Shown: piece by piece, positions 4,731 to 62,188 of the stretch | Numbering within the stretch: the first letter of the stretch is position 1 | Layout: each line of letters opens with the position of its first letter | Assembly: GCA_943355005.1 (NCBI GenBank) | Contig: CALRDV010000001.1 | Span: 15,410-79,409, forward strand | Source of the DNA: Patescibacteria group bacterium | GTDB lineage: Bacteria > Patescibacteriota > Microgenomatia > UBA1400 > MFAQ01 | DNA length: 64,000 nt | Direction of reading: 5' to 3' | The notes under the pieces: generated by a model | What the model was told of the DNA's origin: nothing | What the model saw: only the letters and a program-made list of their open reading frames with translations | Databases searched by the model: none | Program-made: the position numbers and the translations under genes

Positions 4731-5696
4731 ATGGACGATCAAAATCAATTTTCCTCATCCAAAAAACTGATCCAGTCAGCCAGCTCGTTAATTGTTGCTC
4801 TTCCGCCGGATCCTTCTTCTGATATTGTTTCTGCTGGACTAAGTCTTCATCTTTCTTTTATCGCTTCAGGTAAGAAATCTCAAATCGGCTGCGGTACTCA
4901 AGTTCATGTCGATCCTAAACTGGTCGGAGCTCAGGAGATTGCTGATAGTATCGGAGCCAAAAATCTAGTCATTTCCTTTGATTATCACGAAGATGATTTG
5001 GAAAAAGTGGACTACGATGTCCGCCCCGATGGTAAGTTCTATCTTATGATCAAGCCAAAAGCCGGTGCCCCCACCCCTGATGTCAGCAACGTCAAATATT
5101 CCTACTCCGGCGCCTCAGCAGACCTGGTCATAACTCTAGGCATTAATTCTCTTGAAGAACTCGGCAAGATTTATGCCGATGAAAAAAACTTCTTAGATGA
5201 AGCCAAAATCCTTAGTTTAAATATCACTCCTAGGCCGGTGCAATTCACCAAAAATCTCCTTCATCAGTCAGCCAATTCTTTTTCCGAGCTGGTTTCCGAA
5301 CTCGTTGAGAAAACAGAGCTGAAAATTTCCGGAGATTCAGCCAAAAATCTACTTAGCTCTATTTACGAAGAAACCAAAAGTTTGACCAGTCCAAAGATGA
5401 CCGCTAACACTTTTTCTTCCATTTCCTTCCTTATGAGGAATGGAGCCAGGCTTCCAAATCAGCAAGCCTTTGTTCCTAGATTTTCCCAACCAACTTTCTT
5501 TGAAGCCCCTCACGCCCCCTCTGTCATTCCGACCGAAGTGGAGGAATCTCAAACCACCAACATAAGTGACGACGACAACGTTCCCATGCCCCAGGAGGAG
5601 AACAAGCCCTACGTCATTCCTCCATCGAACCTGCCAAACCAGAACGTCCCAAATGACTGGACCAAGCCCAAAATCTTCCGCGCTGGCGACCTCTAA
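4731..5696 (+). CDS. hypothetical protein, possibly degenerate DHH/NrnA-like phosphoesterase (catalytic DHH motif not conserved)
   Basis: N-terminal LIVALPPDPSSDIVSAGL resembles DHH motif I (hxxPDxDxxGS). Later DLVITLG and LMIKPKAG sit where DHH would be. Pro-rich C-terminus. Occupies the rbfA/nrnA slot after infB. Confidence 0.35.
   Translation: MDDQNQFSSSKKLIQSASSLIVALPPDPSSDIVSAGLSLHLSFIASGKKSQIGCGTQVHVDPKLVGAQEIADSIGAKNLVISFDYHEDDLEKVDYDVRPDGKFYLMIKPKAGAPTPDVSNVKYSYSGASADLVITLGINSLEELGKIYADEKNFLDEAKILSLNITPRPVQFTKNLLHQSANSFSELVSELVEKTELKISGDSAKNLLSSIYEETKSLTSPKMTANTFSSISFLMRNGARLPNQQAFVPRFSQPTFFEAPHAPSVIPTEVEESQTTNISDDDNVPMPQEENKPYVIPPSNLPNQNVPNDWTKPKIFRAGDL
5523..5550 (+). repeat. Hairpin repeat (GTCATTCCGACCGAAGTGGAGGAATCTC) in-frame inside CDS 4731-5696 (encodes VIPTEVEES)
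   Basis: Same family termini GTCATTCC...GGAATC. Read in the same frame (GTC ATT CCG = VIP) as the infB copy. Confidence 0.7.
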
Positions 5697-5713
5697 GTGC
5701 TAATATGTAGTAT

Positions 5714-6703
5714 ATGCCATTTACAGAACCTGTTCCATCTACAGAAATACCAGCAGACGATTCTCTAGAAATTCTCCATGAAAGAGGTAGTCTAGATGAA
5801 CGCAAGATAGTATTCAACGGTTTTGGTTCTCTGGATGCTCCATTTCATGGACTACCTAAAACAGAAAGATTGGAAGTAACTCTTGCCGCAAATGCAATCG
5901 TAGAGCTAGCTACATTTTTTACTGAAAAATCCTTTGAGGTTACCCCTGCCATGATTATGTCCAGAAATACACTTCCTTCAGGCGAGGTGGAAAACTGGGA
6001 CAGTTTGACCAAACAACTTGAGACTATAGATCCCCAGAAACGTGTAATTCCTGAAATTGTAGCTTCGATGAAGAGCAAGATGGCACAACTGTTATCCTCC
6101 CAGCCAGCCACCAGTGGAAGTGAAATTTCTAAGCTATTGATGGATAGGGATAAGATTGTAGAGACCCAGAGGACATCTTCTGTTATTACTCCGGATATGT
6201 GTCGTTTGGTAGGTGATACTATGGCTCTAATCACCTTTGGGCGTTTACCTCAAGAAAGTCTAAGAGATATCATACAATCAGATTCTCCAAAAGATTCTGA
6301 AGAACAAATACTTGAGATTATGGACATCATTGAAAATGTCAACTTTGAGGATTCAAATGAAGTTTATTTGAAATTATTAATAAACGGTCGCTTGCCAAAA
6401 ACCTTAAAATCTATTCAAGAAAGTGCAGATTCTGTTGACTTAAACACAACGCCGGACTTTCGTGCTGCCTCCTGGTTTCTCGCCGAAGTAAGGCTAAAAT
6501 ACAAAGATAAACAGTTTACCCCGAAGCAGTGGTCGGATTATCTAGGTGAGGTAAATAAGGCCGTTATGGATGCCAGATTAGCCCGCATGAGTAAGCCATT
6601 AATTATTTGCGGTGATGTTTCACAAAAAATGAGTCTAGACGAGGGATATGCCTTCTTAATGGCCAACTATCTCTATGGCAAAGAGCAAAAACTAGTTAAT
6701 TAG
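5714..6703 (+). CDS. hypothetical protein (329 aa) occupying the truB/ribF position before rpsO
   Basis: Clean ORF. Only weak local resemblance (GFGSLDAPFHGL) to the TruB GHxGTLDPxAxG motif. Not a confident assignment. Confidence 0.5.
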   Translation: MPFTEPVPSTEIPADDSLEILHERGSLDERKIVFNGFGSLDAPFHGLPKTERLEVTLAANAIVELATFFTEKSFEVTPAMIMSRNTLPSGEVENWDSLTKQLETIDPQKRVIPEIVASMKSKMAQLLSSQPATSGSEISKLLMDRDKIVETQRTSSVITPDMCRLVGDTMALITFGRLPQESLRDIIQSDSPKDSEEQILEIMDIIENVNFEDSNEVYLKLLINGRLPKTLKSIQESADSVDLNTTPDFRAASWFLAEVRLKYKDKQFTPKQWSDYLGEVNKAVMDARLARMSKPLIICGDVSQKMSLDEGYAFLMANYLYGKEQKLVN

Positions 6704-39907: not shown

Positions 39908-40384
39908 ATGAGATCAAAGAAAACCCCAGCCAAAACTATTAAACTCGACGCAGTCTTCGGTGACGCTCTTGTTCACAAGATGATCACTGGTGTTATGCAA
40001 GACGGACGCAAGTCGGTCGCTGCCAAACAAGTTTACAAAGCAATTGATCTCGTTGCAGAGCAATCCAAGAAAGACGGTATTGAATTCTTAAACGAAGCTT
40101 TGAATAACATTAAGCCAACCATCGAAGTCCGTTCCCGCCGAGTCGGAGGTGCCTCTTACCAGGTTCCTACCCCTATCCGTCCGGAAAGACGTGATTCCCT
40201 CGCTATCCGTTGGCTCATCAATGCCGCCAAGGCTCGAGGCTCCAATCCTTACCGAACTTTAGCTGACAAGCTCGCTGCCGAAATCATGGAAGCTCATGAA
40301 AATGCCGGAAATGCCATCAAAAAGAAACTAGACACTCACAAAATGGCCGAAGCCAATAAAGCCTTTGCACACTTCCGCTGGTAG
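39908..40384 (+). CDS. rpsG: 30S ribosomal protein S7
   Basis: 158 aa, ...EVRSRRVGGASYQVP..., KMAEANKAFAHFRW. Confidence 0.95.
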   Translation: MRSKKTPAKTIKLDAVFGDALVHKMITGVMQDGRKSVAAKQVYKAIDLVAEQSKKDGIEFLNEALNNIKPTIEVRSRRVGGASYQVPTPIRPERRDSLAIRWLINAAKARGSNPYRTLADKLAAEIMEAHENAGNAIKKKLDTHKMAEANKAFAHFRW

Positions 40385-40391
40385 TCCCTCC

Positions 40392-40433
40392 CAGAGGAGT
40401 CTCCTTGTAGGTAATCCTGCGAGGAGACTCCTC
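40392..40433 (+). other. Long hairpin (11-bp stem GAGGAGTCTCC / GGAGACTCCTC) directly after the rpsG stop
   Basis: No U-tract. Followed 20 nt later by a canonical terminator. Confidence 0.5.
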
Positions 40434-40450
40434 ACATTGGTCCCTATCCC

Positions 40451-40480
40451 AAAAACTCCCGCTTCAGGCGGGATTTTTGG
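40451..40480 (+). terminator. Rho-independent terminator after rpsG (start of island A)
   Basis: CTCCCGC-ttca-GGCGGGA-TTTTTGG. Confidence 0.8.
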
Positions 40481-40497
40481 TATTATAAGACAATATG

Positions 40498-40506
40498 TGA
40501 TATAAT
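40498..40506 (+). promoter_or_regulatory. extended -10 TGaTATAAT + ATCTCC (cassette promoter)
   Basis: T-tract of the upstream terminator abuts the -10. Consensus with other cassettes: TATAATATCCCAGAAC. Confidence 0.5.
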
Positions 40507-40547
40507 ATCTCCAAAGCACATTATCTTAATCTCGATTGGAGGCTATT

Positions 40548-40817
40548 TTGGAAAATAAATTGATTCTTATGCTGGACGAGGGCACTATTGGTCTTATTCT
40601 GCCCGGAGATAAGTTGTTGGTAATCGAATGCAACACAGTTGCCAGCATGGGAAGAATTCCTGAAGATAAGTACTTTATTCACCCCAAAGATTTGGCAAGT
40701 CTCCCTGCGGAAGTTAAAATAGCCATCAACGCCGTATGTGTATCGCATGGCATAACTTCACCTTTTGAGAGGTTTGTCGCAGAATCTTCCGTCAGAAGTC
40801 CAGGATCCTACGATTGA
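40548..40817 (+). CDS. cassette A1: hypothetical small protein (start TTG 40548 after GGAGG; alternatives 40536/40569)
   Basis: GGAGG at 40538-40542, 5 nt before the TTG. Confidence 0.45.
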   Translation: MENKLILMLDEGTIGLILPGDKLLVIECNTVASMGRIPEDKYFIHPKDLASLPAEVKIAINAVCVSHGITSPFERFVAESSVRSPGSYD

Positions 40818-40823
40818 TAAAAT

Positions 40824-40850
40824 AGCACCCTCATCTAGAGGGTGTTTTTA
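40824..40850 (+). terminator. Rho-independent terminator
   Basis: CACCCTC-atcta-GAGGGTG-TTTTT. Immediately followed by TATAAT 40855-40860 + ATCCCAT. Confidence 0.8.
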
Positions 40851-40907
40851 TTGGTATAATATCCCATATAAGTATTGCACGTTCATTCTAAAACCAAGGA
40901 GGTTTCC

Positions 40908-41474
40908 ATGGGAATATTTCAAGGTCATCAAGTTTTGGCTCTTGTTGTTGATATTTTTTGGCCGCTCATTACGGCCATTTCAATTAGGTTTTTAACGAAA
41001 GCTCATACAAGACCAAATCGTAGATTGATGTATTGGGAGCTACCCATTATTTACATTATCATTTTGTTTCTTCCCAACTCGGTATACGCCATGTTGGAAT
41101 TGAAACATTTGTTGATGGTAGATACGGTAGCGGATATTCCAAACATCTGGTCCTTTATTGTTTTTGGCGGAATCTCTCTATTTGGATATCTGGTGACTCT
41201 TTATCAGAATATTCTAATTGCGAATTTTTTTACCAAAACTAAAACAGGCCACATGAAAGCATTTGCTCTTCTATCGATTGTCGGTGGTTTTGGTGGTGTT
41301 GCGGGTCTGTTAAATTTTAATAGTTACGAGGGAATTCTGACCCCACAGGTTTTGTATCTCATTACTAAGATGATTTTTCACCACCCGGTACTGATCGTTC
41401 TTGGAATTGGTGTTTCGGTGTTTATCTTTTTATCTACAGTTTTAGTGCGTCGCATTCAAAAGCCTTCCTCTTAA
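40908..41474 (+). CDS. cassette A2: polytopic membrane protein (188 aa, ~6 TM)
   Basis: SD AAGGAGG at 40896-40902, 5 nt before the ATG. The ORF-track N-extension is discarded. Confidence 0.6.
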   Translation: MGIFQGHQVLALVVDIFWPLITAISIRFLTKAHTRPNRRLMYWELPIIYIIILFLPNSVYAMLELKHLLMVDTVADIPNIWSFIVFGGISLFGYLVTLYQNILIANFFTKTKTGHMKAFALLSIVGGFGGVAGLLNFNSYEGILTPQVLYLITKMIFHHPVLIVLGIGVSVFIFLSTVLVRRIQKPSS

Positions 41475-41491
41475 CAGGAAGGTTTTTTTAT
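41463..41491 (+). terminator. Rho-independent terminator (stop codon in loop)
   Basis: CCTTCC-tcttaaca-GGAAGG-TTTTTTT. Confidence 0.8.
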
Positions 41492-41611
41492 TCCAAGATA
41501 TATCTATACTACAAATAAAATAGGTAGTATATTAATGTCTCTGGAGGAAAAATATAGAATCTACTTGTGTAGTTAAACTTTGTTTCCAAATGTTCTTTAA
41601 AAAGGAGATTA

Positions 41612-42184
41612 ATGAAAAAGACATTTTCTTTTGTGATGATTTCTGTATGTGCAACTCTGCTCATTTCCTGTACCGCAGTATTTTCTTCACTTGGCTACGT
41701 TCCCAGAGCAGATCTGGACGCCGCCACTAAGCAAGTTAGTGATTTAAATACCAAGCTGACTACGGCAAATACCGAGATCGAGAAGTTGAAGACCGGTAAT
41801 GCCGAGAAAGATGTAAAACTCACGGACTATCAAAGCCAAATAACCGAAGCCCAGTCCGACCTTACCAAGATTAAAAATCAGCTTTCTCAATCGGACCTCA
41901 CGCTCGAAGATTGGAAATCACTTCAGTGCGAACAAGACTGGGATATGCTTTGGTACAAAGCCATTTTCAGCTGGCCTCTCACGGATTATTCCAACCTGCC
42001 GGACTACTTTCATTACTATATTGCAGTGACTCAGTGGTCCACCGATCCAAAATGGCAATTGGACGATTCGAAGGCTTTTTCGGTTGTCCTTTTCGATCGG
42101 GATAACGATCAATCCATGGCGATTGACACGGTCAATGACTGTGTGATCTTGAATCCGGATGTGTTCGATTTTTTAGAAAAATAG
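41612..42184 (+). CDS. cassette A3: lipoprotein (lipobox LLISC) with coiled-coil region
   Basis: MKKTFSFVMISVCATLLISC. SD AAGGAG 5 nt upstream. Confidence 0.65.
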   Translation: MKKTFSFVMISVCATLLISCTAVFSSLGYVPRADLDAATKQVSDLNTKLTTANTEIEKLKTGNAEKDVKLTDYQSQITEAQSDLTKIKNQLSQSDLTLEDWKSLQCEQDWDMLWYKAIFSWPLTDYSNLPDYFHYYIAVTQWSTDPKWQLDDSKAFSVVLFDRDNDQSMAIDTVNDCVILNPDVFDFLEK

Positions 42185-42223
42185 ACACGGTGCAAGCCAA
42201 AGCTCCTTCACCCTAATCCATTA

Positions 42224-42250
42224 TCGGCCGCTCACGCGGCCGGTTTTTTA
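42224..42250 (+). terminator. Rho-independent terminator
   Basis: GGCCGC-tcac-GCGGCC-GGTTTTTT. Followed by GAGATAATCACCCCAG, a promoter-like sequence. Confidence 0.8.
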
Positions 42251-42304
42251 TATGAGATAATCACCCCAGTACTTTGACTAAATCTTTTTGTTTAAGGAGA
42301 TCTC

Positions 42305-43765
42305 ATGAAACCCAGTCTCAAATTGCTAGATCACGATCTTGTATTGCGGGTTGTTCGCGAAGCCTTTTCGTTGCTTATGAAGCCGGGAATTAAAGTTCAG
42401 AACTTGGAAGCCCGCCAATTACTTACCTCTGCCGGTGCCACAGTAAACGAAGAAACTCAGGTTGTTCAAATTCCTGAATATGTCGTTCGTCTGGCGCTGA
42501 ACTCGGTTCCTTCAGAATTTTGGCTTTATGATCTGGCCGGGAAACCTACTGTTCACTACGGTGGAGACTCAGTCCACTTTGATCCGGGTTCTTCCGGCAT
42601 CAATATTCTGGATCCGGAAACTCTTGAACATCGTGAAGCTACAACTGCTGACTTGATTCGAATTATCAAAGTCGCCGAAGGTATTCCTCAGTACGACGCC
42701 CAGTCCACTGCCGTCGTCTGTAGCGATGTCCCCCAGGAGATTCAGGATTTGTATCGACTTTATCTCGTCCTTCTTCACTCATCCAAGCCAATTGTTACCG
42801 GCGCATTTTCTAACAAGAACATCGGCAACATGATTGAGATGCTCGCTATCATGTCCGGCAGTGCCGGAAATCTTCGGCGTTATCCTCGAGCTGTCTTTGA
42901 TGTTTGTCCGTCTCCTCCTCTCATCTGGTCAAACTTTGGTGCCGGCAATCTCATGGCTCTCGCTCGAGCCGGTGTTCCGGCCGAAATGATTTCGATGCCC
43001 ATCGCCGGTGCCGCTGCTCCCGTAACCCTTATCGGTTCCGTTGTTCAGCACACGGCCGAGTCGCTCGCCGGCATCGTCATTCATCAGCTGGCCTATCCCG
43101 GTTCTCCCATTGTCTGGGGCGGAGCTCCTGCCATTATGGACATGCGCAAGGGTAGCACTCCCATGGGTGCCATCGAGACTGCCATGATCGATTGTTCATA
43201 CGCCCAGGTTGGTAAATATCTTGGTGTTCCTACCCACACTTATTTGGGAGGAAGTGACGCCAAGTCGGTCGACGCTCAAGCCGGGCTCGAAGGAGCCATG
43301 TCCATTCTCATCGGCGCCCTCAGTGGTGTCAATATGATTTCCGGCGCCGGCATGATCGACTCACTTCTTTGCATGAGTCCGGAAAAGCTGGTTATTGATG
43401 CCGAATCCATTGCTATGGCTCGTCGCATGCTAGTAGGAATGAAAACACCCACAGACACTTTGGCTACCGGATTTTACGAAGGAGTCAATTTTAAAGGCGG
43501 AGATTTCCTTAAGCAGCGCATCACCATGCAACTTTTCCAGCAGGAGCAAAATCTTCCCGGTCGCGTCATCGATCGAGGCTCCACTCGCGAATGGAAAAAT
43601 TCGGGTAAATTGGACACATTTGGCCGGGCCAAGCTCGAAGTCAAAAAGCTTGTGGCTTCGTACCAATATCCAGACCTAAATCTCGCTCGCGAAGCTGCCT
43701 TGCACCACTTTGTCCGCAATCTGGCCAAAAAAGCCGGCGTGACCAATCTCCCGACTCTCGAATAA
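42305..43765 (+). CDS. cassette A4: MttB-superfamily (trimethylamine/glycine-betaine:corrinoid) methyltransferase homolog, no in-frame amber
   Basis: 486 aa. Matches MttB-family blocks: ...HTAESLAGIVIHQLAYPGSPIVWGGAP...GSDAKSVDAQAGLEGAMS...SGAGMIDS...SPEKLVIDAE... SD AAGGAGA. Confidence 0.65.
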   Translation: MKPSLKLLDHDLVLRVVREAFSLLMKPGIKVQNLEARQLLTSAGATVNEETQVVQIPEYVVRLALNSVPSEFWLYDLAGKPTVHYGGDSVHFDPGSSGINILDPETLEHREATTADLIRIIKVAEGIPQYDAQSTAVVCSDVPQEIQDLYRLYLVLLHSSKPIVTGAFSNKNIGNMIEMLAIMSGSAGNLRRYPRAVFDVCPSPPLIWSNFGAGNLMALARAGVPAEMISMPIAGAAAPVTLIGSVVQHTAESLAGIVIHQLAYPGSPIVWGGAPAIMDMRKGSTPMGAIETAMIDCSYAQVGKYLGVPTHTYLGGSDAKSVDAQAGLEGAMSILIGALSGVNMISGAGMIDSLLCMSPEKLVIDAESIAMARRMLVGMKTPTDTLATGFYEGVNFKGGDFLKQRITMQLFQQEQNLPGRVIDRGSTREWKNSGKLDTFGRAKLEVKKLVASYQYPDLNLAREAALHHFVRNLAKKAGVTNLPTLE

Positions 43766-43771
43766 TCATCT

Positions 43772-43804
43772 GTCATTGCGAGCGCTGCGCGGCAATCTAC
43801 CTGC
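43772..43804 (+). repeat. Hairpin repeat GTCATTGCGAGCGCTGCGCGGCAATCTACCTGC
   Basis: Same GTCATTGCGAG...GGCAATCTACCTGC family as 30017/30087. Confidence 0.85.
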
Positions 43805-43821
43805 TATAAAACTTCTCCCTC

Positions 43822-43850
43822 CACCCCGTCTAAACAGCGGGGTTTTTATT
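43822..43850 (+). terminator. Rho-independent terminator
   Basis: CCCCG-tctaaacag-CGGGG-TTTTTATT. Confidence 0.75.
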
Positions 43851-43930
43851 GGCCTATAGTTGATTTACACCCCAGTTTTTGATAGAATACCCCAAAGTTT
43901 AACTCTTTAATAACTAAATGGAGGTGACCC

Positions 43931-44296
43931 GTGTGGCACTCGATTATGCGCTTTTTTAAGTCTTTCGGGAAAAAACCGGTTCAAAAAAAAGATAACGTAG
44001 TTCTTGTGAACATCGATTATCAGCCGGATTTTTTCTTCCTTCCCACTCATTTTTCCGGCAACGACCCGATCAGACAAATTTCAGAACGGGATCTGGATCT
44101 TTTGCTCAGATGGTACTCAGGTGTTCCCTCAACTCCCGATCCGATTTGGGATGCAATTATGCGAGGTGATGAGGAGCGCCCTTTACCGGCAGTTACCGAC
44201 CTGAACCAAGCTATACAAGACATGGAGACAATGTGGCTGAACAAGGGAAATCTCCCTGACGCAGAAATATTCAAAGCCTTCAAACCGGAGATCTAA
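43931..44296 (+). CDS. cassette A5: hypothetical protein (121 aa, GTG start after GGAGGTGA)
   Basis: SD GGAGGT 6 nt upstream. Confidence 0.5.
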   Translation: MWHSIMRFFKSFGKKPVQKKDNVVLVNIDYQPDFFFLPTHFSGNDPIRQISERDLDLLLRWYSGVPSTPDPIWDAIMRGDEERPLPAVTDLNQAIQDMETMWLNKGNLPDAEIFKAFKPEI

Positions 44297-44297
44297 A

Positions 44298-44648
44298 ATG
44301 GATACCGAAGATGTTCTTATACTTCTGGCATTATTATTACTGCTCGTTATCGTTTTCTTGGTAATTGGATTGGGGACCCAAAGTTCCCCCGGTGTAGAAA
44401 AGCTTCCTAATGGACAAATTTTTGTCCCTGACGGTGCAACTCTTCGAGAGTATAACTCCCTGTCAAAAATGTTTTACTCAATCACCCCTCAAGGGGACAC
44501 TGTCACTATCAATCTTATAGTTGATATGAAAGTTAAGCTCTGTGACCCCAATTGCACTAAAGAAGTTTGGACAGGCTTTATTAGTTGGACCTTCGAAAAA
44601 GTCCCGGGAGGCATAAACGTCACCCCTCCATTTGCTTCTGTTCCCTAG
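44298..44648 (+). CDS. cassette A6: signal-anchored small protein (116 aa)
   Basis: Starts 1 nt after the A5 stop. TM LILLALLLLLVIVFLVIGL. Confidence 0.5.
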   Translation: MDTEDVLILLALLLLLVIVFLVIGLGTQSSPGVEKLPNGQIFVPDGATLREYNSLSKMFYSITPQGDTVTINLIVDMKVKLCDPNCTKEVWTGFISWTFEKVPGGINVTPPFASVP

Positions 44649-44671
44649 CTTTAGCCTCGCCTTCACCATCC

Positions 44672-44713
44672 GTCATTGCGAATCTCGTACTCGAGCTGTG
44701 GCAATCTCACTCC
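44672..44713 (+). repeat. Hairpin repeat GTCATTGCGAATCTCGTACTCGAGCTGTGGCAATCTCACTCC
   Basis: Near-identical to the 62948 copy. Contains the nested palindrome CTCGtaCTCGAG. Confidence 0.85.
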
Positions 44714-44716
44714 ACC

Positions 44717-44746
44717 CACCCCGTCTAACCAACGGGGTTTTATTTT
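44717..44746 (+). terminator. Rho-independent terminator
   Basis: CCCCG-tctaaccaa-CGGGG-TTTTATTTTATT. Confidence 0.75.
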
Positions 44747-44747
44747 A

Positions 44748-45041
44748 TTAACACATATCGGCCACCATCGGCATCACCTCAATGCACGGCGTTCCCCAGC
44801 TATGATTCTTCAGAATAAATTCATGTATATCTGTCAATTTAATTTTGGTCGTCTTCAAACTAATCAAAACCACTTCTTCCCCCGAAGCCCCCTTCGGTCC
44901 CGGATACATAAGGAATGTGGGTGTAATCTTCGCCGTGCCACACAGTTCTTTATCCAGCATCTCTTTACAAAGTTTCTCTGCCTCTTTCTTGGTCGGGCAG
45001 GGGATATTGATAACCACCGGATCCATATCACTTATATTCAT
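44748..45041 (-). CDS. cutA: CutA1-like divalent-cation tolerance protein (PII-like fold)
   Basis: ...CGTAKITPTFLMYPGP..EEVVLISLKTT....HSWGTPCIEVMPM parallels the CutA pattern (C..i.p.i.siY.WkG...EeevllllKT...HpYEvPEiialpi). Confidence 0.55.
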   Translation of the reverse strand: MNISDMDPVVINIPCPTKKEAEKLCKEMLDKELCGTAKITPTFLMYPGPKGASGEEVVLISLKTTKIKLTDIHEFILKNHSWGTPCIEVMPMVADMC

Positions 45042-45193
45042 ACCTGTATTTTTTCACCAAGGTCTTTAATAAGCAATCTTTTTATACATGGCGTCATTCG
45101 AGTGATTATGGTAAAATTAGCCTCGTGAATAACTCTCCTTCAGTGGGGAGGTTTAATTCGTCAAAATAATTAATCAATAACCAATAACCAAAA

Positions 45194-47317
45194 ATGGCCG
45201 CTCCTACAGGAAAAAAAGTCCCTCTAGACCGTGTTAGAAACACCGGTATTATCGCTCATATCGACGCAGGTAAAACCACAACCACAGAACGAATTCTTTT
45301 TTACACCGGTAAGTCCTACAAAATTGGTGATATTGACGAAGGCAACACCCAGATGGACTGGATGGAGCAAGAGAAGGAACGCGGCATAACCATCGTTTCC
45401 GCTGCTACCACCGCTTTCTGGACTCCTGTACTTCCTAATGCCCGCTTCAAAGAAGAGCACCGCTTCAACATCATCGATACTCCGGGTCACGTCGACTTTA
45501 CCGCCGAAGTTGAGCGCTCTCTCCGCGTTCTAGATGGGGGAGTCATCGTCTTGGATGCCGGTTCAGGTGTTCAGTCTCAAACTGAAACTGTCTGGCGCCA
45601 AGCAGACAAGTACAAAGTTCCTCGTATTGCTTTCATCAATAAAATGGACGTTTTGGGTGCCGACTACATGGCTACCATCAATGACGTTCATGAGAAGCTA
45701 GGTGCCAAGACTGCTGTCATGGCTCTACCTCTCGGTGTCGAAAACACTTTCCGTGGCATTATTATGCTTTTGGAAAGACAGACCATCATTTGGAAAGGTG
45801 ATGAGACAGGCGCTCTCTACGAAGTTACCGAAGGCTTCCCTGAAGACATGAAAGACGAATGCGAGCTCGAGCGCGCTAAGCTCATCGAGTCCATCGTTGA
45901 ATTTGACGAAGTTCTGATGGGTGAGTACCTCGAAGGCAAAGAGCCTTCTATGGACGCTCTCAAAGCCGCTCTCCGCGTCGCTACCTGTGCCAATCAAATC
46001 GTGCCTGTCTTCCCTGGTTCCTCACTCCGCAACAAAGGTGTTCAGCCTCTTCTTGATGCTGTCGTCGACTTCCTCCCTTCACCTCTCGACAAGCCAACCA
46101 TCACCGGTACCGATCCTGAAACCAACGAAGAAGTCACCCGCAAGGCTGATCCTTCTGAGCCTTTTTCAGGCTTAGCTTTCAAAATTCAAGCCGATCCTCA
46201 TGTGGGTAAGCTCACCTACGTCCGTGTATACTCCGGCAAAATTGCTTCAGGCTCATTTGTCTACAACGCCAGTAAAGGCGAAAGAGAGCGTTTGGGACGC
46301 CTCATGCTTATGCATGCGAACACCCGAGAAGAAGTCGCCGAGGCTACCGCGGGTGAAATCGTCGGTGTCGTAGGTTTAAAAATGACCAAAACAGGTGATA
46401 CTCTCTGTGACGAAAACCATCAGCTGGTTCTCGAATCCATCAACTTCCCTGATCCTGTTATCTCTCTGGCTATCGAGCCGAAGACCAAAGCCGATCAAGA
46501 AAAGCTTGATCTCGCTCTAAGTCGTTTAGCCGAAGAAGATCCTACCTTCAGAATCAAAACCGACCACGAAACCGGTCAAACTGTCATCTCAGGCATGGGT
46601 GAGCTTCACCTTGAAATCTTGGTTGATCGTTTACGCCGTGAATTCAAAGTCGATGCTTCTACCGGTGCTCCTCAGGTCGCTTACCGTGAAACCGTTACCA
46701 AAACCGCTCAAGGCGAAGGTAAATTCATCCGTCAGTCGGGTGGACGCGGTCAATACGGTCACTGTATTCTTATTGTTACTCCCAAGTCTAGAGGCGAAGG
46801 GTTTACCTTCACCAACAAGGTCGTTGGAGGCTCTATTCCTAAAGAATTCATCGGACCTATCGAAAAAGGTGTCCGCGAAGCTTTGGACAATGGCTTAATT
46901 GCCGGTTTCCCCATGGTTGATCTCGATGTCGCTGTTATAGATGGAAGTTACCACGACGTTGACTCTTCCGAAATGTCCTTCAAGATTGCCGGTTCTATGG
47001 CTCTTCAAGACGCCGTCAAGAATGCTTCACCTGTCATCCTCGAGCCCATTATGAAGGTTGAAGTCACTACTCCTGAAGCCAACATGGGTGACATCATTGG
47101 TGATCTTTCCAGTCGCAGAGCTCAAATTGGTGGCACCGCCCAGCGTGGAAATGCCCGCGTTATAACTGCTACAGTGCCCCTTTCCGAGCTTTCCGCTTAC
47201 TCGACTGCTATCCGTTCTCTCACCGCGGGACGTGCCAACTACTATATGGAGCCTTCCCATTATCAAGACCTTCCTGCTAGCTTGGCCGCAAAGCTATTGA
47301 AATCTCCGACGAACTAG
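45194..47317 (+). CDS. fusA: elongation factor G
   Basis: [24 protein letters not shown]...[13 protein letters not shown]. Confidence 0.95.
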
Positions 47318-57344: not shown

Positions 57345-57396
57345 TTCTAAAAGGCTAGTTGAGCCTGTTTATAGTATTGAACTATAGGAAATTTTG

Positions 57397-57405
57397 TGAT
57401 ATAAT
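57397..57405 (+). promoter_or_regulatory. extended -10 TGaTATAAT (cassette B1 promoter)
   Basis: GTGATATAATCCACG. Same word as the island A promoter at 40498. Confidence 0.5.
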
Positions 57406-57451
57406 CCACGCATCGTTTAGAACGCCCACATTCACAAAAAAGGAGGGCATC

Positions 57452-58168
57452 ATGCCCAGTTATGTCGAAAAATTTCGCTTAGACCATCTAATATCCATGC
57501 TCAGACAGGCTCGTGGAGATATTTTTGCCATCATCTCGGCAATCGCCGAGTATGAGCTTTGGCACCAGGACTACCTTGAGCGCAATGCTCAGGCCGCTTC
57601 CGTACGGAAGCAGTATCTTCAAGGTTTCGAAGAAGATATGGCTCAGTTGACCCGTGCCGACTTTCAGCACCCCACGGCGGGGACTCACGCCGTAGATGGC
57701 CAATTGGCTGTTGGTGGAGAGTCTGAACTTGATGGGTTTGATCTTCTCCAGCCAATTAAGGGTGATCGTGTTCCGAATCCAGATTACCCGGAATCCTGCA
57801 GTATTGGGTCAGATGGATGGACGGCAGCTGCGTTTTCGGGGCGGACTCCTCGTATCGTCCCATTCGATTCCGAGAACGATGATGTGTGGGAGATGGAGGA
57901 GCCAGCTGAAGATGTAGATTGGGACGAGCTTGCCTTTGTCTTTAGGCAGGTTGGTTTCGACACAAGACAGCTGTACGGCATCACCAACATCTCTGATATC
58001 CATATCGATTATCATCGGCGCGGTCTCGCTGTACTCCCAAAGGGCGCACGTCACAATTCACCTCTCGGTCGCGAAACCTGGGAAGATCGGTTTGTCGCTG
58101 AGATACGTGAAAGCGCATCGAAAAACAACTGGCACCCCTGGCTGATCGGCACCAACTTGTTCGAATGA
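57452..58168 (+). CDS. cassette B1: hypothetical acidic protein (238 aa)
   Basis: SD AAGGAGGG 57440-57447, 4 nt before the ATG. The ORF-track N-extension is discarded. Confidence 0.6.
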   Translation: MPSYVEKFRLDHLISMLRQARGDIFAIISAIAEYELWHQDYLERNAQAASVRKQYLQGFEEDMAQLTRADFQHPTAGTHAVDGQLAVGGESELDGFDLLQPIKGDRVPNPDYPESCSIGSDGWTAAAFSGRTPRIVPFDSENDDVWEMEEPAEDVDWDELAFVFRQVGFDTRQLYGITNISDIHIDYHRRGLAVLPKGARHNSPLGRETWEDRFVAEIRESASKNNWHPWLIGTNLFE

Positions 58169-58175
58169 TCCCAAA

Positions 58176-58205
58176 CCACACCCTAACCGGTGTGGTTTTT
58201 ATTTT
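58176..58205 (+). terminator. Rho-independent terminator
   Basis: CCACACC-ctaacc-GGTGTGG-TTTTTATTTT. Followed by TATAAT (58211-58216) ATCCTAGAACATT. Confidence 0.8.
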
Positions 58206-58260
58206 AGTAGTATAATATCCTAGAACATTGTAATTCTATCTATTGCTTAGGAGGCAACTT

Positions 58261-58683
58261 ATGTTTAGTTTAAGTCTGTTGGGAACGGCCACAGACAATC
58301 ATTCGGCTTACCTGGTTCGACCAGGAATGATGAACGGCGCCTTACATTTCTTTCATGAAATTAAGTGGGTCGAGTTCGAAGGGCTGAGGGTGAACGGAGA
58401 TTGGGGACAAGCCAGGTTTGTTTCTTCGAATATTGTCGGCAGTCATATCTATCAGCTGACCGAATTAACATCCGAAGATCCGGAGAAGCTCGAGATGACC
58501 GAGTTCCACATCGCCATCCACTTCTCATCCGCCACCCCCCAAGAAGCCTCTGAGGCTATATTGGACTGGGCAATTCACTCTGGCGCCAGTGAAGGCGCCA
58601 CCATTGAACCGGCCAACGCAGAAGGAACCAAATGGTTCATATGTTTACCGGCATTGTTCAAGTTCAGTCTCGAGATCGTCTAA
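58261..58683 (+). CDS. cassette B2: hypothetical protein (140 aa), possibly VOC/glyoxalase-like fold
   Basis: SD AGGAGG 58249-58254. The VOC resemblance (…GTKWFICLP..FKFSLEIV) is weak. Confidence 0.55.
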   Translation: MFSLSLLGTATDNHSAYLVRPGMMNGALHFFHEIKWVEFEGLRVNGDWGQARFVSSNIVGSHIYQLTELTSEDPEKLEMTEFHIAIHFSSATPQEASEAILDWAIHSGASEGATIEPANAEGTKWFICLPALFKFSLEIV

Positions 58684-58686
58684 TTC

Positions 58687-58718
58687 AAATCCACTCTATA
58701 TAGGGTGGATTTTTATTT
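58687..58718 (+). terminator. Rho-independent terminator
   Basis: ATCCAC-tctatatagg-GTGGAT-TTTTATTTT. Followed by TATAAT (58726-58731) ACCCCAGAACGTT. Confidence 0.8.
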
Positions 58719-58778
58719 TCTGATGTATAATACCCCAGAACGTTTCTAGAAAAACAACACTTTGAAATCGGAGGAAAT

Positions 58779-59162
58779 ATGAGCTTTACACCCCAAAATG
58801 CTTTAGGGAAAGCAAATTCTAATTTACAGGGAACCGAATTTTTTCTTGGAGCCAAAAGAGCACTCGGTGAAAAATTTACTAAAGCCGATGTCTTTATCCT
58901 CCTTATTGCACGAATTAAGGAAATTTTAAGCTTTAAGGATGGTCGGGATGAAAAATGGCTGGGCATGTTAAAAGATGCAATCAATCAAAACATGACCTCG
59001 GCGCTGAAGGAATATTTATCAAATCAGATAGAATATCTTCGAACATCCAATCCTGATTACGAAATATTGATCTTGACTCCTGCACTTGTAAGCCTTTCTT
59101 TTAGTTCAAATTTAGATCCATATCTTCTTCTCGGACTAGAAGAGTTCTACAAAACCCTCTAG
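58779..59162 (+). CDS. cassette B3: hypothetical protein (127 aa)
   Basis: SD GGAGG 6 nt upstream. Confidence 0.55.
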   Translation: MSFTPQNALGKANSNLQGTEFFLGAKRALGEKFTKADVFILLIARIKEILSFKDGRDEKWLGMLKDAINQNMTSALKEYLSNQIEYLRTSNPDYEILILTPALVSLSFSSNLDPYLLLGLEEFYKTL

Positions 59163-59167
59163 GCACT

Positions 59168-59196
59168 CGCCCACCTTCACCGGTGGGTTTTTTATT
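59168..59196 (+). terminator. Rho-independent terminator
   Basis: CCCACC-ttcacc-GGTGGG-TTTTTTATT. Followed by TATAAT (59205-59210) ATCCCAGAACATT. Confidence 0.8.
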
Positions 59197-59242
59197 ATGG
59201 GTGTTATAATATCCCAGAACATTAAATTAAGGAGGTTAGATA

Positions 59243-59611
59243 ATGGAAACCATAGAAACGATCCAATTTGTTATTGAGCTCATTGGCAGTGTATTTAAGA
59301 TTGTTCAGATGGCAATTCATCTGGTTTTTGTCGGCATCGTTACTCTATTCCGTCCCGGTTCCGATAAAGAGTGGCGCCAGGCATGGATGTGGGTTGTCTT
59401 CCCGGTATTTTTTGTGGGAGGCTTCGGCATCCTCGTCTCATGGTTAATCCACTACATATTTGCTTTGCTGGGATTTACTCTTCTGGGTTGGATTCTGATA
59501 TTGATCTGGCTATTTTACTTTTGGGTTGGTGAGCCATTTATGTATATTACCTACCCGGAGTATGAAATTAACCGCGAGGAGAAATCTCATTGGATCGACA
59601 CCGGCGAATAA
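59243..59611 (+). CDS. cassette B4: small membrane protein (122 aa, 3 TM)
   Basis: SD AAGGAGG. Co-transcribed with B5 (no terminator between them). Confidence 0.55.
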   Translation: METIETIQFVIELIGSVFKIVQMAIHLVFVGIVTLFRPGSDKEWRQAWMWVVFPVFFVGGFGILVSWLIHYIFALLGFTLLGWILILIWLFYFWVGEPFMYITYPEYEINREEKSHWIDTGE

Positions 59612-59627
59612 ATCTCTGGAGGTAAAA

Positions 59628-60074
59628 ATGTTCAAATCTCTTAGTGAACAGATCGACGATGCACTTGCAAACCTTACGATACTTGAACTTCGTATCGGTC
59701 ACGCACGTCAATCTGGGACAATGCTTACGAAAGAAAAATTGTTTGAGTACTTGATGGCCTGGGCTAATTATCGTAATTTCTTTGCTCTTTCGCATTACCG
59801 CCATGAATCAAAATGGAGTGGCATTATTCTCGATTGCCAAGCAAAGATCATGACCCAACAGTTAAAGGACTTTCTCAAAGAAATCAAAGATAATCTCGAA
59901 GCTCGCATCCCACCTACCGAAAGAATCGTTTTGGGGTACAAACCAATCGATGTTCTTCACCCTCTCCCGGCCGCCATTTCCGTTAGCAACATACTAGTTG
60001 AAAACGAAAAGCTATTTACGACTTTGCCACTCCTACTGTTGGCACTTATCGAAATATCTGACTCCAACACATAG
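59628..60074 (+). CDS. cassette B5: hypothetical protein (148 aa)
   Basis: SD GGAGGT 59618-59623. Internal start chosen from the longer ORF 59526. Confidence 0.5.
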   Translation: MFKSLSEQIDDALANLTILELRIGHARQSGTMLTKEKLFEYLMAWANYRNFFALSHYRHESKWSGIILDCQAKIMTQQLKDFLKEIKDNLEARIPPTERIVLGYKPIDVLHPLPAAISVSNILVENEKLFTTLPLLLLALIEISDSNT

Positions 60075-60100
60075 CCCACCACCCGGTGGGTTTTTTTGTT
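60073..60100 (+). terminator. Rho-independent terminator
   Basis: CCCACC-accc-GGTGGG-TTTTTTT. Followed by TACAAT (60100-60105). Confidence 0.8.
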
Positions 60101-60138
60101 ACAATTTCAGTGAACTTTCAAATTTAGATTGGAGACAC

Positions 60139-60483
60139 ATGATTACTCATGTCAAAATTAGAGCACCTTTCGACCACGTTGACGGACAGACTTTTTATGT
60201 CACACCGGAATTAAAAGAAAAAATATTTATTCTTGGTGCAACTCTCGTGCTTGATCACAACAATTTTTGTATGATTACGCCTGAGGGTGAAGTGGTAAGA
60301 ACAAAGTGGACCGTAGTCGAAGTTATTTCCGACAGACCTACCGGCTACAATGATCGCAAAATGGTTCGAGATATCGTAGGTGGCTTAATAGCTGTTAGTT
60401 CCATCGGACGAGCTTCTTGGGGACAAATATCTATAAAATTCTTTGAAGGGTTGGTTTTTTTCAACGAAGAAGAGGTTGTTTAG
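60139..60483 (+). CDS. cassette B6: hypothetical protein (114 aa)
   Basis: SD GGAGA 5 nt upstream. Internal start of ORF 59998. Confidence 0.5.
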   Translation: MITHVKIRAPFDHVDGQTFYVTPELKEKIFILGATLVLDHNNFCMITPEGEVVRTKWTVVEVISDRPTGYNDRKMVRDIVGGLIAVSSIGRASWGQISIKFFEGLVFFNEEEVV

Positions 60484-60492
60484 TGAGATTAC

Positions 60493-60521
60493 AAACCCAC
60501 AATTATCTGTGGGTTTTTTTA
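60493..60521 (+). terminator. Rho-independent terminator
   Basis: ACCCACA-attatc-TGTGGGT-TTTTTTT. Followed by TATAAT 60522-60527. Confidence 0.8.
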
Positions 60522-60535
60522 TATAATATCGCCTG

Positions 60536-60859
60536 GTGTTCAAAAACGAAACTATTTTTACCAAAGCGGTACTAACTGCCAAAAATCATATTGCCCGGTC
60601 AGAGGAGGGATTTCTTCTCTTGTCTAAAGATCGGTCATTGTCTGAAATGTCCACTCCCATCACAGGTCTTACATCTGAGGAAACCTTGGAAAGAAGAACT
60701 GACTTTTTAGAATTTATTAATCAAATGAATGAAGATGGTCTCAGAAATCATTTAGCTATGGTTGAACACCAAATAGACGTTGCCCTTAGTCGGCCAATTC
60801 AAGGAACTTCCGAACTGTATTGGCAGAGAATTGTTATACTGGATAGACTAGCCTCTTAA
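60536..60859 (+). CDS. cassette B7: hypothetical protein (107 aa; GTG start 9 nt after the -10, probably leaderless; start uncertain)
   Basis: No SD. TATAAT 60522-60527. Confidence 0.4.
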   Translation: MFKNETIFTKAVLTAKNHIARSEEGFLLLSKDRSLSEMSTPITGLTSEETLERRTDFLEFINQMNEDGLRNHLAMVEHQIDVALSRPIQGTSELYWQRIVILDRLAS

Positions 60860-60907
60860 AGGAAAACTTCTAAAGTAAGTTTGAACTGATAGAATAGTAC
60901 TCACGAT

Positions 60908-62188
60908 ATGAATAATATATTAGCTCCTCTGCGTGCCTTGTTCAAAATTAAAGACCTCCGTAACCGTATTCTTTTTACAGCCGGAGTTATTTTATTATTC
61001 CGTTTGGTCGCCCACATTCCTACACCTGGCATAAATTTAGACGCTCTCAAGAATCTTTTTAATAGTTCTGCTTTTCTTTCTCTTTTGGACGTATTCTCAG
61101 GCGGAACCTTGACGAATTTTTCCGTCATGGCTCTCGGACTGAACCCTTATATCAACGCCTCCATTATCATGCAAATGCTTGGCATGGTAGTTCCGTCTTT
61201 GGAAGCGCTCCAGAAAGAAGGGGACTATGGTCGCCAAAAAATTAATCAATACACACGTCTACTTACCATTCCCCTAAGTTTCCTTCAGGGCATCGCTCTA
61301 ATTTTTCTACTTCGCAACCAGGGGCTTACGACCACAGCAGACCCTCTTAAGCTGGCCTCAATTGTCTTCACTCTAGCCGCCGGCACCTCATTCCTCATTT
61401 GGCTTGGCGAACAGCTAAATGAATACGGTGTTGGAAATGGAATTAGTCTGATTATCTTTGTCGGTATCGTTAGTCGTCTCCCGGTCGCCGCCGCACAGAC
61501 AATTGCCACCATCGATCCTTCCAAAATATTTGTATACCTCATCTTCTTATTCTTTGCCATTGCTTCGATCTACGCTATCGTTCGCGTTGGTGAAGCTGTC
61601 CGCGAAGTTCCCATTCAGTCCGCCCGCCGTGGAGCTTCCTTTACCTCTACTGTCGGCAATCATTTGCCACTCAAGCTCAATCAAGCCGGCGTCATCCCAA
61701 TCATCTTTGCCGTTTCCTTTATGTTAATTCCAAATTTACTAGGTCGGGTCTTTGCCTCATCCACTCAACCATTTTTATCCGGTTTTTCTCACACAGTAAC
61801 TACTTATTTGGCGCCCGATACCATTCTATATAATGCCCTCTATTTTGGCCTTGTTGTTGCCTTCTGTTATTTTTATACCGCCGTTGTCTTCAATCCGGAA
61901 AAAATCGCCAAAGATCTTCGTTCTTCCGGTTCCTTTATTCCCGGAGTCCGTCCTGGTCCCAATACTGTCGACTACTTAAACTTTGTTTTAAATCGCATTA
62001 CTTTAGTCGGAGCTTCCTTCTTAGGTTTAGTCGCCATCTTCCCTTCAATCGTTTCAGGTATGACAGGGATTGCTGGACTAGCTATTGGTGGTACAGGCAT
62101 TCTCATCGTCGTCTCGGTCGTTCTGGAAATTTTGAAAACAGTGAACTCTCAGCTCTACATGTACAGTTACGACAAATTTTTAGATTAA
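60908..62188 (+). CDS. secY: preprotein translocase subunit SecY
   Basis: 10 TM. ...[14 protein letters not shown]..., 426 aa. Confidence 0.95.

Follow-up and report, generated by a model that had tools for sequence, protein, structure and literature searches.

Several described systems provide the background for the locus reported here. Integron cassettes are typically promoterless. The repetitive extragenic palindromic (REP) and bacterial interspersed mosaic element (BIME) families consist of extragenic palindromes; the palindromic elements of Rickettsia can also occur within coding sequences. The MttB superfamily of methyltransferases has, besides MtgB, further non-pyrrolysine members in MtpB, MtcB and MtyB. 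The available part of one earlier report (PMC6735719) describes insertions in the ribosomal supercluster that consist of several unrelated genes and lie between operons, with the order of the flanking genes kept. The present analysis concerns a 4,809-bp gap inside the str operon, between rpsG (end 40384) and fusA (start 45194), in a 64,000-nucleotide stretch of DNA (the window) from a bacterium of the Candidate Phyla Radiation (CPR). The reading favoured here, with a probability of roughly 0.75, is an old split of the str operon, specific to the clade, which has become a gene-turnover hotspot anchored by an MttB-family methyltransferase. Inter-operon insertions in the ribosomal supercluster are known; an intra-operon, MttB-anchored case in CPR was not found in the literature that could be searched on MttB in CPR, on Collierbacteria and on rpsG/fusA insertions, which does not describe this arrangement.

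Rarity and distribution of the break

The window is part of a 223-kb short-read metagenome contig assembled with MEGAHIT (ENA ERZ27280309 k141_147785). Because the relatives of its MttB, CutA and elongation factor G (EF-G) include named Candidatus Collierbacteria genomes, the host is assigned by sequence to Candidatus Collierbacteria (CPR/Patescibacteria, class Microgenomatia); the closest MttB homologues (73-88% identity) include 'MttB6' of Candidatus Collierbacteria GW2011_GWB1_44_6. Comparison loci are labelled L followed by a number, and those bearing MttB were taken from ENA, NCBI (GCA_000998385.1), JGI and Logan assemblies of different samples. Counts from the scans of reference genomes and of metagenome contigs cover the loci listed only, with few close relatives among them.

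In the 78 reference loci listed with both genes, the median distance from S7, the product of rpsG, to EF-G, the product of fusA, is 68 nt, and only two of the 78 exceed 400 nt. In two further reference loci, the CPR loci L003 and L081, S7 was not found in the 8-10 kb preceding fusA, and all four exceptional loci are titled Patescibacteria or another CPR group. The 73 metagenome loci listed have a median gap of 107 nt. The interruption of this adjacency by 4.8 kb, to which the initial annotation of the window had drawn attention, is thus confirmed as exceptional.

An MttB gene lies between rpsG and fusA wherever the context was seen (L082-L084, L086-L087, L088-L091 and L093-L095), in at least five Collierbacteria lineages from independent assemblies and samples. 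The Collierbacteria loci are 91-95% identical to the window in EF-G, 88-89% in RpoC, 94-96% in EF-Tu and 82-93% in S7, and about 20 flanking genes (rpoB-rpoC-rpsL-rpsG and fusA-tuf-rpsJ-rplC...) are collinear across them. The genes of the gap, from rpsG to fusA and with (-) for the minus strand, are as follows.

Window: orf93, DUF1361-like, lipoprotein, MttB, orf121, orf116, cutA(-)
L082 (contig begins inside the gap): ..., lipoprotein, MttB, CCA-adding enzyme(-), 311 aa(-), 136 aa
L086: pyridoxal-phosphate (PLP) enzyme(-), radical S-adenosylmethionine (SAM) enzyme(-), MttB
L093: orf93 homologue, PLP enzyme(-), radical SAM(-), MttB
L088-L091: orf116 homologue, PLP enzyme(-), radical SAM(-), DUF1361, MttB, 592 aa(-)
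L098 (EF-G 83%): 84-aa open reading frame (ORF) after S7, HrpA-like DEAH helicase
L097 (EF-G 75%): small membrane ORFs after S7, RelE/Phd toxin-antitoxin-like pair (read from translations alone)

MttB is the sole constant gene of the gap, about 13 gene families being variable among the sampled lineages; four other families (orf93, orf116, the membrane protein and the lipoprotein) have homologues in the gap of relatives, in other orders. All Collierbacteria sampled have both the gap and MttB, and the accessory content differs per lineage. MttB was found in none of the loci L097, L098, L099 and L100, of which L099 (EF-G 72%) has no S7 in the available 3.6 kb upstream and L100 (67%) none within 10 kb. 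Because these sister lineages are split without MttB, the break would predate the acquisition of MttB. More distant CPR (EF-G 67% or less: L002, L004-L006 and others) have the normal S7/EF-G adjacency, as have other bacteria, and the gap with MttB appears, from these sequences, to mark Collierbacteria proper.

These comparisons also bear on whether the gap is an assembly artefact, a chimeric join of unrelated DNA between rpsG and fusA, which might be suspected in a short-read MEGAHIT metagenome contig whose recurring REP and terminator modules might, in principle, be misjoined by an assembler. However, a second contig of 326 kb has the same neighbours; S7 is followed by the orf93 homologue in the independent assemblies L093 and L095, the lipoprotein by MttB in L082-L084, and MttB by fusA within the same gap in L086, L093 and L094; and the conserved fusA promoter and leader pass without interruption into fusA. 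A chimeric join is accordingly given almost no weight.

A divergently oriented pair of genes, encoding the radical SAM enzyme and the class I/II PLP enzyme, was observed directly upstream of MttB in three other Collierbacteria lineages, at the following positions.

L086: 8086-9899
L088: 8399-9274
L093: 8065-9809
L094: 14-1833

NCBIfam models applied to these partner genes of relatives returned generic radical-SAM and class I/II aminotransferase similarity only, with weak CobD/HisC-like matches of the PLP enzyme that fall well short of the cut-off. The two genes may work together with MttB, or they may simply be further residents of the gap. A tblastn search of the window with the radical SAM, PLP-enzyme, 592-aa, CCA-adding enzyme and helicase sequences returned nothing.

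The candidate fusA promoter and 5' leader

A promoter of its own for fusA had been predicted within 45042-45193, and conservation across all relatives strongly supports one at the first of the two following features.

45109-45117, + strand: candidate fusA promoter, extended -10 TGGTAAAAT, invariant in the clade
45118-45193, + strand: fusA 5' leader of 76 nt, with a hairpin at 45126-45160 (inner stem 45133-45150) followed by an A-rich stretch

The element TGGTAAAAT is identical in the window, L082, L086, L088, L093, L094 and L098 despite differing upstream genes (cutA, a 136-aa ORF, MttB, a 592-aa ORF and a helicase), and the inspected CPR loci at greater distance lack it. The 85 nt preceding fusA, which comprise this extended -10, the box TAGCCTCGTGAAT, the hairpin and the A-rich tract up to the ATG, are almost invariant in the window, L082, L086, L088 and L093 and very similar in L098, and the alignments contain compensatory changes in two stem pairs of the hairpin. 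EF-G synonymous sites between the same genomes differ at 57-64%, and since the leader is near-invariant over this distance it is taken to be under selection. No Shine-Dalgarno sequence precedes fusA (45160-45196); the ATG follows a conserved, unstructured A-rich tract, and the sole GGAGG-like sequence of the leader is found within the 3' arm of the hairpin, 44 nt upstream of the ATG. A covariance model of the leader gave one match per Collierbacteria locus and one in L098 (81-101 bits) and no further match in 0.95 Mb of related loci, and an Rfam 15 scan of the whole window, leader and hairpins included, gave zero matches at the gathering threshold. As a candidate regulatory RNA, the leader is well defined and confined to the clade.

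The MttB-family anchor

The constant gene of the gap is the following.

42305-43765, + strand: MttB-superfamily methyltransferase, PF06253 E=1.4e-87

The match to PF06253 (294 bits against a cut-off of 25 bits) spans residues 3-472 of 486. Between the window and L082 the protein has a dN/dS (ratio of non-synonymous to synonymous substitution rates) of 0.06, which indicates strong purifying selection, and a dS of 1.31, which is similar to the 1.44 of EF-G and consistent with vertical descent of MttB.

Two named identities were rejected. Trimethylamine methyltransferase MttB proper was set aside as the equivalent of Pyl334 (M. barkeri MttB numbering) is Gly316 and the ORF has no in-frame UAG; the TIGR02369 score is 365 bits against a cut-off of 525 bits. 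The glycine betaine methyltransferase MtgB, in which Y97, R312, H348 and F356 contact glycine betaine (PMC13080624), was set aside as the HMMER alignment to 9YCE replaces these residues by S96, H311, S346 and L354. The S, H, S and L at these four positions are invariant in the 120 closest homologues listed, 107 of which are of a 491-493-aa type, with 69-72% identity to the window protein, whose named members are Anaerolineales or Chloroflexota. As a side observation, residue 316 (window 43250-43252) is Gly in 13/13 CPR-type sequences and Ala, Ser, Thr or Val in all but one of the 107 Chloroflexi-type sequences, so that Gly316 appears to be a clade-specific change at the former catalytic position.

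Among non-CPR sequences, the closest relatives are found in canonical corrinoid clusters of Anaerolineales, one of which comprises a GntR regulator, a corrinoid protein, four MttB paralogues and a pterin-binding methyltransferase. No corrinoid protein (PF02310/PF02607) and no pterin/MT2 methyltransferase is encoded in the gap or in those of the relatives, and a tblastn search of the 64-kb window found none either. By analogy, the chemistry of the enzyme is most likely methyl transfer from a quaternary amine to a corrinoid, whose carrier would be encoded elsewhere or obtained from outside the cell. In a neighbour-joining tree of the 120 closest homologues, with distant Anaerolineales paralogues as outgroup, the CPR cluster, which clustering also recovers, is nested in the point estimate, with weak bootstrap support. 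Acquisition from an Anaerolineales-like donor would be the parsimonious direction of transfer.

The position and orientation of MttB, often directly upstream of the fusA promoter, are kept despite saturated synonymous sites, which might suggest a functionally integrated module, with MttB and perhaps the envelope proteins held beside the translation genes through coupled expression or function, for example if read-through co-regulated them with ribosomal genes or if MttB methylated a component of the translation machinery. Six of the seven gap genes share the orientation of the flanking operons, and the lack of a cognate corrinoid protein nearby would allow a non-canonical role. However, strong predicted terminators flank MttB in every lineage, its partner genes are not conserved, and the 120 closest homologues listed, canonical Anaerolineales methylotrophy clusters included, share the substrate-site residues, which argues for the same small-molecule chemistry. 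Inertia explains the position equally well, as rearrangement beside essential operons would be selected against. Functional integration is therefore regarded as unlikely.

Gene content of the gap

The gap holds seven ORFs, arranged as five self-contained units on the + strand plus the minus-strand cutA. The genes other than MttB, together with the two flanking genes, are as follows.

39908-40384, + strand: rpsG (ribosomal protein S7), Pfam PF00177 Ribosomal_S7 E=7.8e-53, last gene of the rpoB-rpoC-rpsL-rpsG block
40548-40817 (mechanical ORF from 40536), + strand: orf93, small soluble protein, no family match
40908-41474, + strand: DUF1361-like integral membrane protein, 5-6 hydrophobic segments (Kyte-Doolittle), Shine-Dalgarno AAGGAGG upstream
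41612-42184, + strand: lipoprotein with signal peptide, lipobox LISC, coiled-coil segment and a C-terminal domain without assigned function
43931-44296, + strand: orf121, orphan, GTG start after GGAGGTG, no family match
44298-44648, + strand: orf116, small membrane-anchored protein, start one base past the orf121 stop
44748-45041, - strand: cutA (CutA1 family), PF03091 E=7e-10, 39 bits against a cut-off of 22.4 bits
45194-47317, + strand: fusA (EF-G), five EF-G Pfam domains, first gene of the fusA-tuf-rpsJ-rplC... block

The methyltransferase, the lipobox lipoprotein and the opposite-strand CutA1-like gene had all been named in the initial annotation, and the PF06253 match, the LISC motif and the PF03091 match uphold these assignments. 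For orf93 the gene caller placed the start at ATG 40569, and TTG 40548 fits the spacing from a GGAGG; TTG 40548 is the likely start because the L093 homologue has an identical GGAGG-to-start spacing. Searches of Pfam, NCBIfam, PHROG and PADLOC gave no match for orf93, its AlphaFold2 single-sequence model is unreliable (predicted local distance difference test, pLDDT, 49), and a homologue (46% identity, E=5e-15) lies directly 3' of S7 in L093 and L095. The membrane protein has a weak match to DUF1361 (PF07099; E=3e-4, 21 bits against a 25-bit cut-off) and a homologue (32% identity, E=2e-24) directly upstream of MttB in L088-L091, the L091 copy of which has a DUF1361 match on record. The predicted lipoprotein has an N-terminus, MKKTFSFVMISVCATLLISC, that fits the lipobox [LVI][ASTVI][GAS]C by eye, with hydrophobic residues 3-30; scans of Pfam, NCBIfam, PADLOC and PHROGs returned weak coiled-coil-type matches only, a homologue (54% identity) lies directly upstream of MttB in L082 and L083, and its dN/dS is about 0.19.

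A full HMMER search of orf121 against 1.84 billion representatives matched itself only, plus three weak matches (TPR (tetratricopeptide repeat) protein, tandem-repeat protein) that were rejected as repeat-inflated. The product of orf116 has a single transmembrane helix at its N-terminus and a beta-rich domain in which two cysteines are conserved, the domain model being of low confidence; in the AlphaFold2 single-sequence model (pLDDT 68) the transmembrane helix alone is confident. A word-indexed homologue search matched orf116 to itself only, and its true homologues (40-51% identity, E=5e-18) were found with tblastn in uncalled ORFs of related loci, directly 3' of S7 in L088-L091. The cutA gene is convergent with orf116 and divergent from fusA, and has a weak Shine-Dalgarno sequence. 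Its product scores below the cut-offs of the NCBIfam equivalogs; 56 homologues were found, the closest (62-95%) including named Collierbacteria proteins. In named Collierbacteria genomes cutA stands at unrelated loci, from which it is read as a native family gene that was relocated into the gap in the lineage of the window.

Predicted terminators and promoters, and REP-like hairpins

The predicted signals of the gap, other than those of fusA, are as follows.

40394-40433, + strand: long palindromic hairpin directly 3' of rpsG, perfect 18-bp arms, 4-nt loop
40457-40478, + strand: predicted intrinsic terminator closing the rpsL-rpsG unit, 7-bp GC-rich stem and TTTTT
40477-40506, + strand: promoter-like site for orf93, TTGGTA, 18 nt, TATAAT, with the extended -10 TGATATAAT at 40498-40506; 10/12 match plus TG
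40824-40860, + strand: predicted terminator (stem 40824-40846 and T-tract; -14.3 kcal/mol, z=-5.5), then extended -10 TGGTATAAT at 40852-40860
41462-41491, + strand: predicted terminator overlapping the membrane protein stop codon; -14.7 kcal/mol, z=-5.2
42223-42261, + strand: strong predicted terminator (9-bp stem, 7 GC pairs, T6; -16.9 kcal/mol, z=-5.0), then -10-like TGAGATAAT at 42253-42261
43767-43848, + strand: composite module copy 1, REP-like hairpin 43775-43796 and terminator ACCCCGTCTAAACAGCGGGGTTTTT at 43823-43848
43860-43888, + strand: promoter-like site for orf121-orf116, TTGATT, 17 nt, TAGAAT, extended -10 TGATAGAAT (43880)
44667-44745, + strand: composite module copy 2, REP-like hairpin 44675-44705 and terminator ACCCCGTCTAACCAACGGGGTTTT at 44718-44741

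The long hairpin and terminator 3' of rpsG, both noted in the initial annotation, fold together at -54.4 kcal/mol (z=-10). The hairpin at 40394-40433 is unique in the window, L088 and L093 having REP elements at the same place. The terminator has counterparts 3' of rpsG in L086, L093 and L098, with position kept and sequence not, and rpsG is followed by a predicted terminator in all split lineages.

The cassette layout of self-contained units described earlier is likewise supported, every + strand unit ending in a predicted intrinsic terminator (40824, 41462, 42223, 43823 and 44718). The scan yielded 17 terminator-like sites where 8.0 +/- 2.8 would be expected, and the window has 23 extended -10 motifs TGnTAnAAT where 9.9 would be expected, four of them in or at the edge of the gap (40498, 40852, 43880 and 45109). 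The earlier statement that all units have a promoter and a Shine-Dalgarno sequence stands in part: most units are preceded by an extended -10 and the membrane protein by AAGGAGG, but the scans detected no promoter for the lipoprotein unit, the -10-like TGAGATAAT of MttB, as read from the sequence, matches the consensus imperfectly, and the Shine-Dalgarno sequence is weak or absent at cutA and fusA, respectively.

Two hairpin-repeat elements adjoining terminators had also been reported, and two REP-like elements (GTCATTGCGA...GGCAATC) were found in the gap, at 43772 and 44672; across the whole window the REP-like hairpin families gave 12 matches against 3.8 expected. Each element is paired with a terminator ACCCCGTCTAAaCAgCGGGGTTTT, twice in the gap, and the resulting modules (43767-43848 and 44667-44745) form an imperfect direct repeat of about 80 nt that brackets orf121-orf116, with segments D1 (32 nt at 88% identity) and D12 (15 nt at 93%). 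In L082 an identical terminator stands 3' of MttB and is followed directly by a convergent gene. In its simplest reading, this one case suggests that orf121-orf116 may have been inserted 3' of MttB when recombination took place at the REP/terminator module or when the module was duplicated.

A further REP-like palindrome, GTCATTGCGAGGAGGCGAAGGCGACGTGGCAATCC, lies at 4089-4122, in frame inside infB (IF-2, 3253-4728), where it encodes ...SLRGGEGDVAIQ... between the Pfam matches EF-G_D2 (residues 186-264) and IF-2 (312-395). Similar REP-like motifs lie inside ORFs at 5523 and 22647.

A second break of the ribosomal supercluster was observed in the window between rplO (L15, 56895-57344) and secY (60908-62188). 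The gap, 57345-60907, contains about six ORFs without a Pfam match, each followed by a predicted intrinsic terminator (58173, 58687, 59169, 60073 and 60493), and extended -10 motifs at 57397, 59202, 60097 and 60887, an architecture that matches that of the rpsG-fusA gap.

Native composition and the test for mobility

The gap genes were compared in synonymous-codon likelihood and in GC content at third codon positions (GC3) with the other 61 window genes of at least 100 aa. The codon likelihood gave z=-0.05 for MttB, -0.6 to -1.25 for five other gap genes and -2.4 for the 97-aa cutA, and the GC3 of the gap genes lay within +/-1.7 standard deviations. The gap genes score below the ribosomal genes in codon likelihood, as do the other non-ribosomal genes of the window, and the foreign composition that a codon-usage comparison might have revealed was not found. 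No integrase, transposase or other mobility gene was matched by any gap ORF in Pfam, NCBIfam or PHROGs, and the window has no tRNA gene. PADLOC and PHROGs, run on all gap proteins, returned coiled-coil noise on the lipoprotein only, and a defence-island or prophage reading was rejected on this ground. No repeats bracketing 40385-45193 as a whole were found, the internal orf121-orf116 unit alone being bracketed.

A recent mobile genomic island or integron-like cassette array, inserted horizontally into the str operon of this one genome, would account for several features: the layout resembles a cassette array, orf121 is an orphan, the content differs between close relatives, the MttB subfamily is otherwise found mostly in Anaerolineales, and the imperfect direct repeat brackets orf121-orf116. 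However, MttB and four other gap families occupy the same gap of relatives, and synteny thereby largely refutes a recent insertion; the codon usage is native; no integrase, transposase, tRNA gene or phage match was found; the units bear their own promoter-like sites, unlike integron cassettes; the repeats are REP-like elements found window-wide and not specific to the gap; and no repeats flank the whole gap. Such an island is considered very unlikely. Of the initial annotation, the broken adjacency and the self-contained units thus hold, but not a recent island, the position being old and shared, the composition native and the gap free of mobility gene matches. The initial annotation had itself set against an island the conservation of this exact arrangement across the lineage with core-like codon usage, and position and native codon usage largely answer to this, but the exact arrangement is not conserved. 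Since the gene content around MttB differs in every lineage, 'variable hotspot' is the apt term and 'island' is not. The promoter-gene-terminator units, which recur between L15 and secY, appear, from the sequence of the window, to be the normal organisation of accessory genes in this genome and not the signature of a mobile element.

Proposed history of the locus

According to the favoured reading, the str operon would have been split between rpsG and fusA in an ancestor of the clade, rpsG gaining an intrinsic terminator and fusA an extended -10 promoter followed by a conserved leader devoid of a Shine-Dalgarno sequence. The spacer, insulated from transcription on both sides, would then have become a long-lived gene-turnover hotspot. 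In early Collierbacteria it would have received the MttB-family gene, most likely horizontally and from an Anaerolineales-like donor, in which the subfamily works in three-component corrinoid methyltransferase clusters, and the gene would have been kept in the gap since, under strong purifying selection. Around it, small units, each with its own putative promoter, Shine-Dalgarno site and terminator, would have been gained, lost, relocated and reordered between close relatives. These are predicted to encode mostly envelope proteins (the DUF1361-like membrane protein, the lipoprotein and the membrane-anchored orf116), and housekeeping genes would also have moved in, namely cutA in the window and the CCA-adding enzyme in a sister lineage. 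In the lineage of the window, orf121-orf116 would have been inserted 3' of MttB with duplication of, or recombination at, the REP-hairpin-plus-terminator module of about 80 nt.

Several points weigh against this history. The relatives compared are those among the matches listed, and, the census of the clade being incomplete, some Collierbacteria could lack the gap. The promoters and terminators are predictions from consensus or fold only, and the missing promoter of the lipoprotein unit makes some read-through or co-transcription likely. The comparison of MttB with EF-G divergence is approximate, as dS is near saturation. The 13 CPR-type MttB sequences are monophyletic in 22/40 bootstraps and their nesting in the Chloroflexi-type is weak, and for this reason we only infer the direction of transfer. 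The recombination model draws on one duplicated module. The joins orf116-cutA-fusA are backed by the window contig and one other assembly, probably of the same population.

A broader joint reading, in which the rpsG-fusA and L15-secY gaps are recombinase-free docking gaps, MttB is an orphan enzyme acting on free or host cobalamin and the fusA leader is a cis-regulatory RNA, is doubtful as a whole. In its first part, units may be shuffled between REP/terminator modules as a private cassette system for envelope proteins; in its second, the orphan MttB, kept since before the sampled Collierbacteria diverged, may demethylate a quaternary amine; in its third, the leader could be a new cis-regulatory RNA replacing the lost fusA-rpsG coupling.

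The split and its hotspot, as favoured here, would mean that CPR can stably tolerate a break in a very conserved operon adjacency after evolving a terminator together with a replacement promoter and leader, and that the neutralised spacer becomes a turnover hotspot while the surrounding 20 or so genes stay frozen. A strongly conserved corrinoid-type methyltransferase in a very small genome bears on what CPR take from their hosts. Operon interruptions in CPR metagenome-assembled genomes should not automatically be read as recent horizontal transfer or misassembly.

Other observations in the window and comparison loci

Between infB and rpsO (4731-6703) the window has two ORFs, of 321 and 329 aa, without a Pfam match; rbfA and truB are usual at this position. 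Kilobase-scale insertions between fusA and tuf were observed among the loci listed in L005 (10294-15244), L003 (12103-14499), L043 (2586-6180) and L068 (12040-13851), L003 being labelled Levybacteria and the others Gammaproteobacteria or 'bacterium', and breaks of the str operon thus seem to recur in sampled genomes. L002, L004 and L005 (binchicken metagenome-assembled genomes titled 'uncultured Pseudomonadales' or 'Gammaproteobacteria') have the EF-G, RpoC and ribosomal proteins closest to those of the window among the genome loci listed; at 63-67% identity their EF-G lies above that of any Patescibacteria-labelled locus listed except L003, and by these sequences the taxonomy under which they are public looks wrong. 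Over 1-64000 the cumulative GC skew declines with almost no break, with C > G on the gene-rich + strand, in agreement with the strand asymmetry reported for Collierbacteria and relatives (PMC7143001).

Comparison with known systems

The repeats of the window resemble REP/BIME elements in being short palindromes (GTCATTGCGA...GGCAATC and GTCATTCCGA...GGAATC) at gene 3' ends beside terminators, and Rickettsia palindromic elements in that at least one copy lies in frame inside infB. They differ from both in belonging to another sequence family, and no RAYT/TnpA-REP gene was seen in the window.

The gap is like an integron cassette array in its short, same-orientation, single-gene units with recurring structured 3' elements. 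It is unlike one in that Pfam and PHROGs found no IntI integrase, the units have promoter-like sites and predicted intrinsic terminators, and the content is native to the lineage; its 3' elements are the terminators and REP-like hairpins of the window at large and not attC sites, for which no dedicated model was searched.

The methyltransferase resembles the non-pyrrolysine MttB superfamily, such as MtgB of D. hafniense (PDB 2QNE and 9YCE; PMC13080624), in having a full-length PF06253 match and no in-frame UAG. It differs from MtgB in that the E-value is only 2e-52 and all four glycine-betaine contacts are replaced, and from three-component corrinoid systems in that no corrinoid or MT2 gene accompanies it in the searched regions given above.

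The insertions described in the available part of PMC6735719 and the rpsG-fusA gap both place lineage-specific, unrelated genes inside a block of translation genes that is otherwise conserved and collinear. The former stand between operons, whereas the gap lies inside the str operon and would have needed a new terminator, a fusA promoter and a leader; and compared with what that part of the report describes, the gap has one conserved anchor with high turnover around it, in a CPR host.

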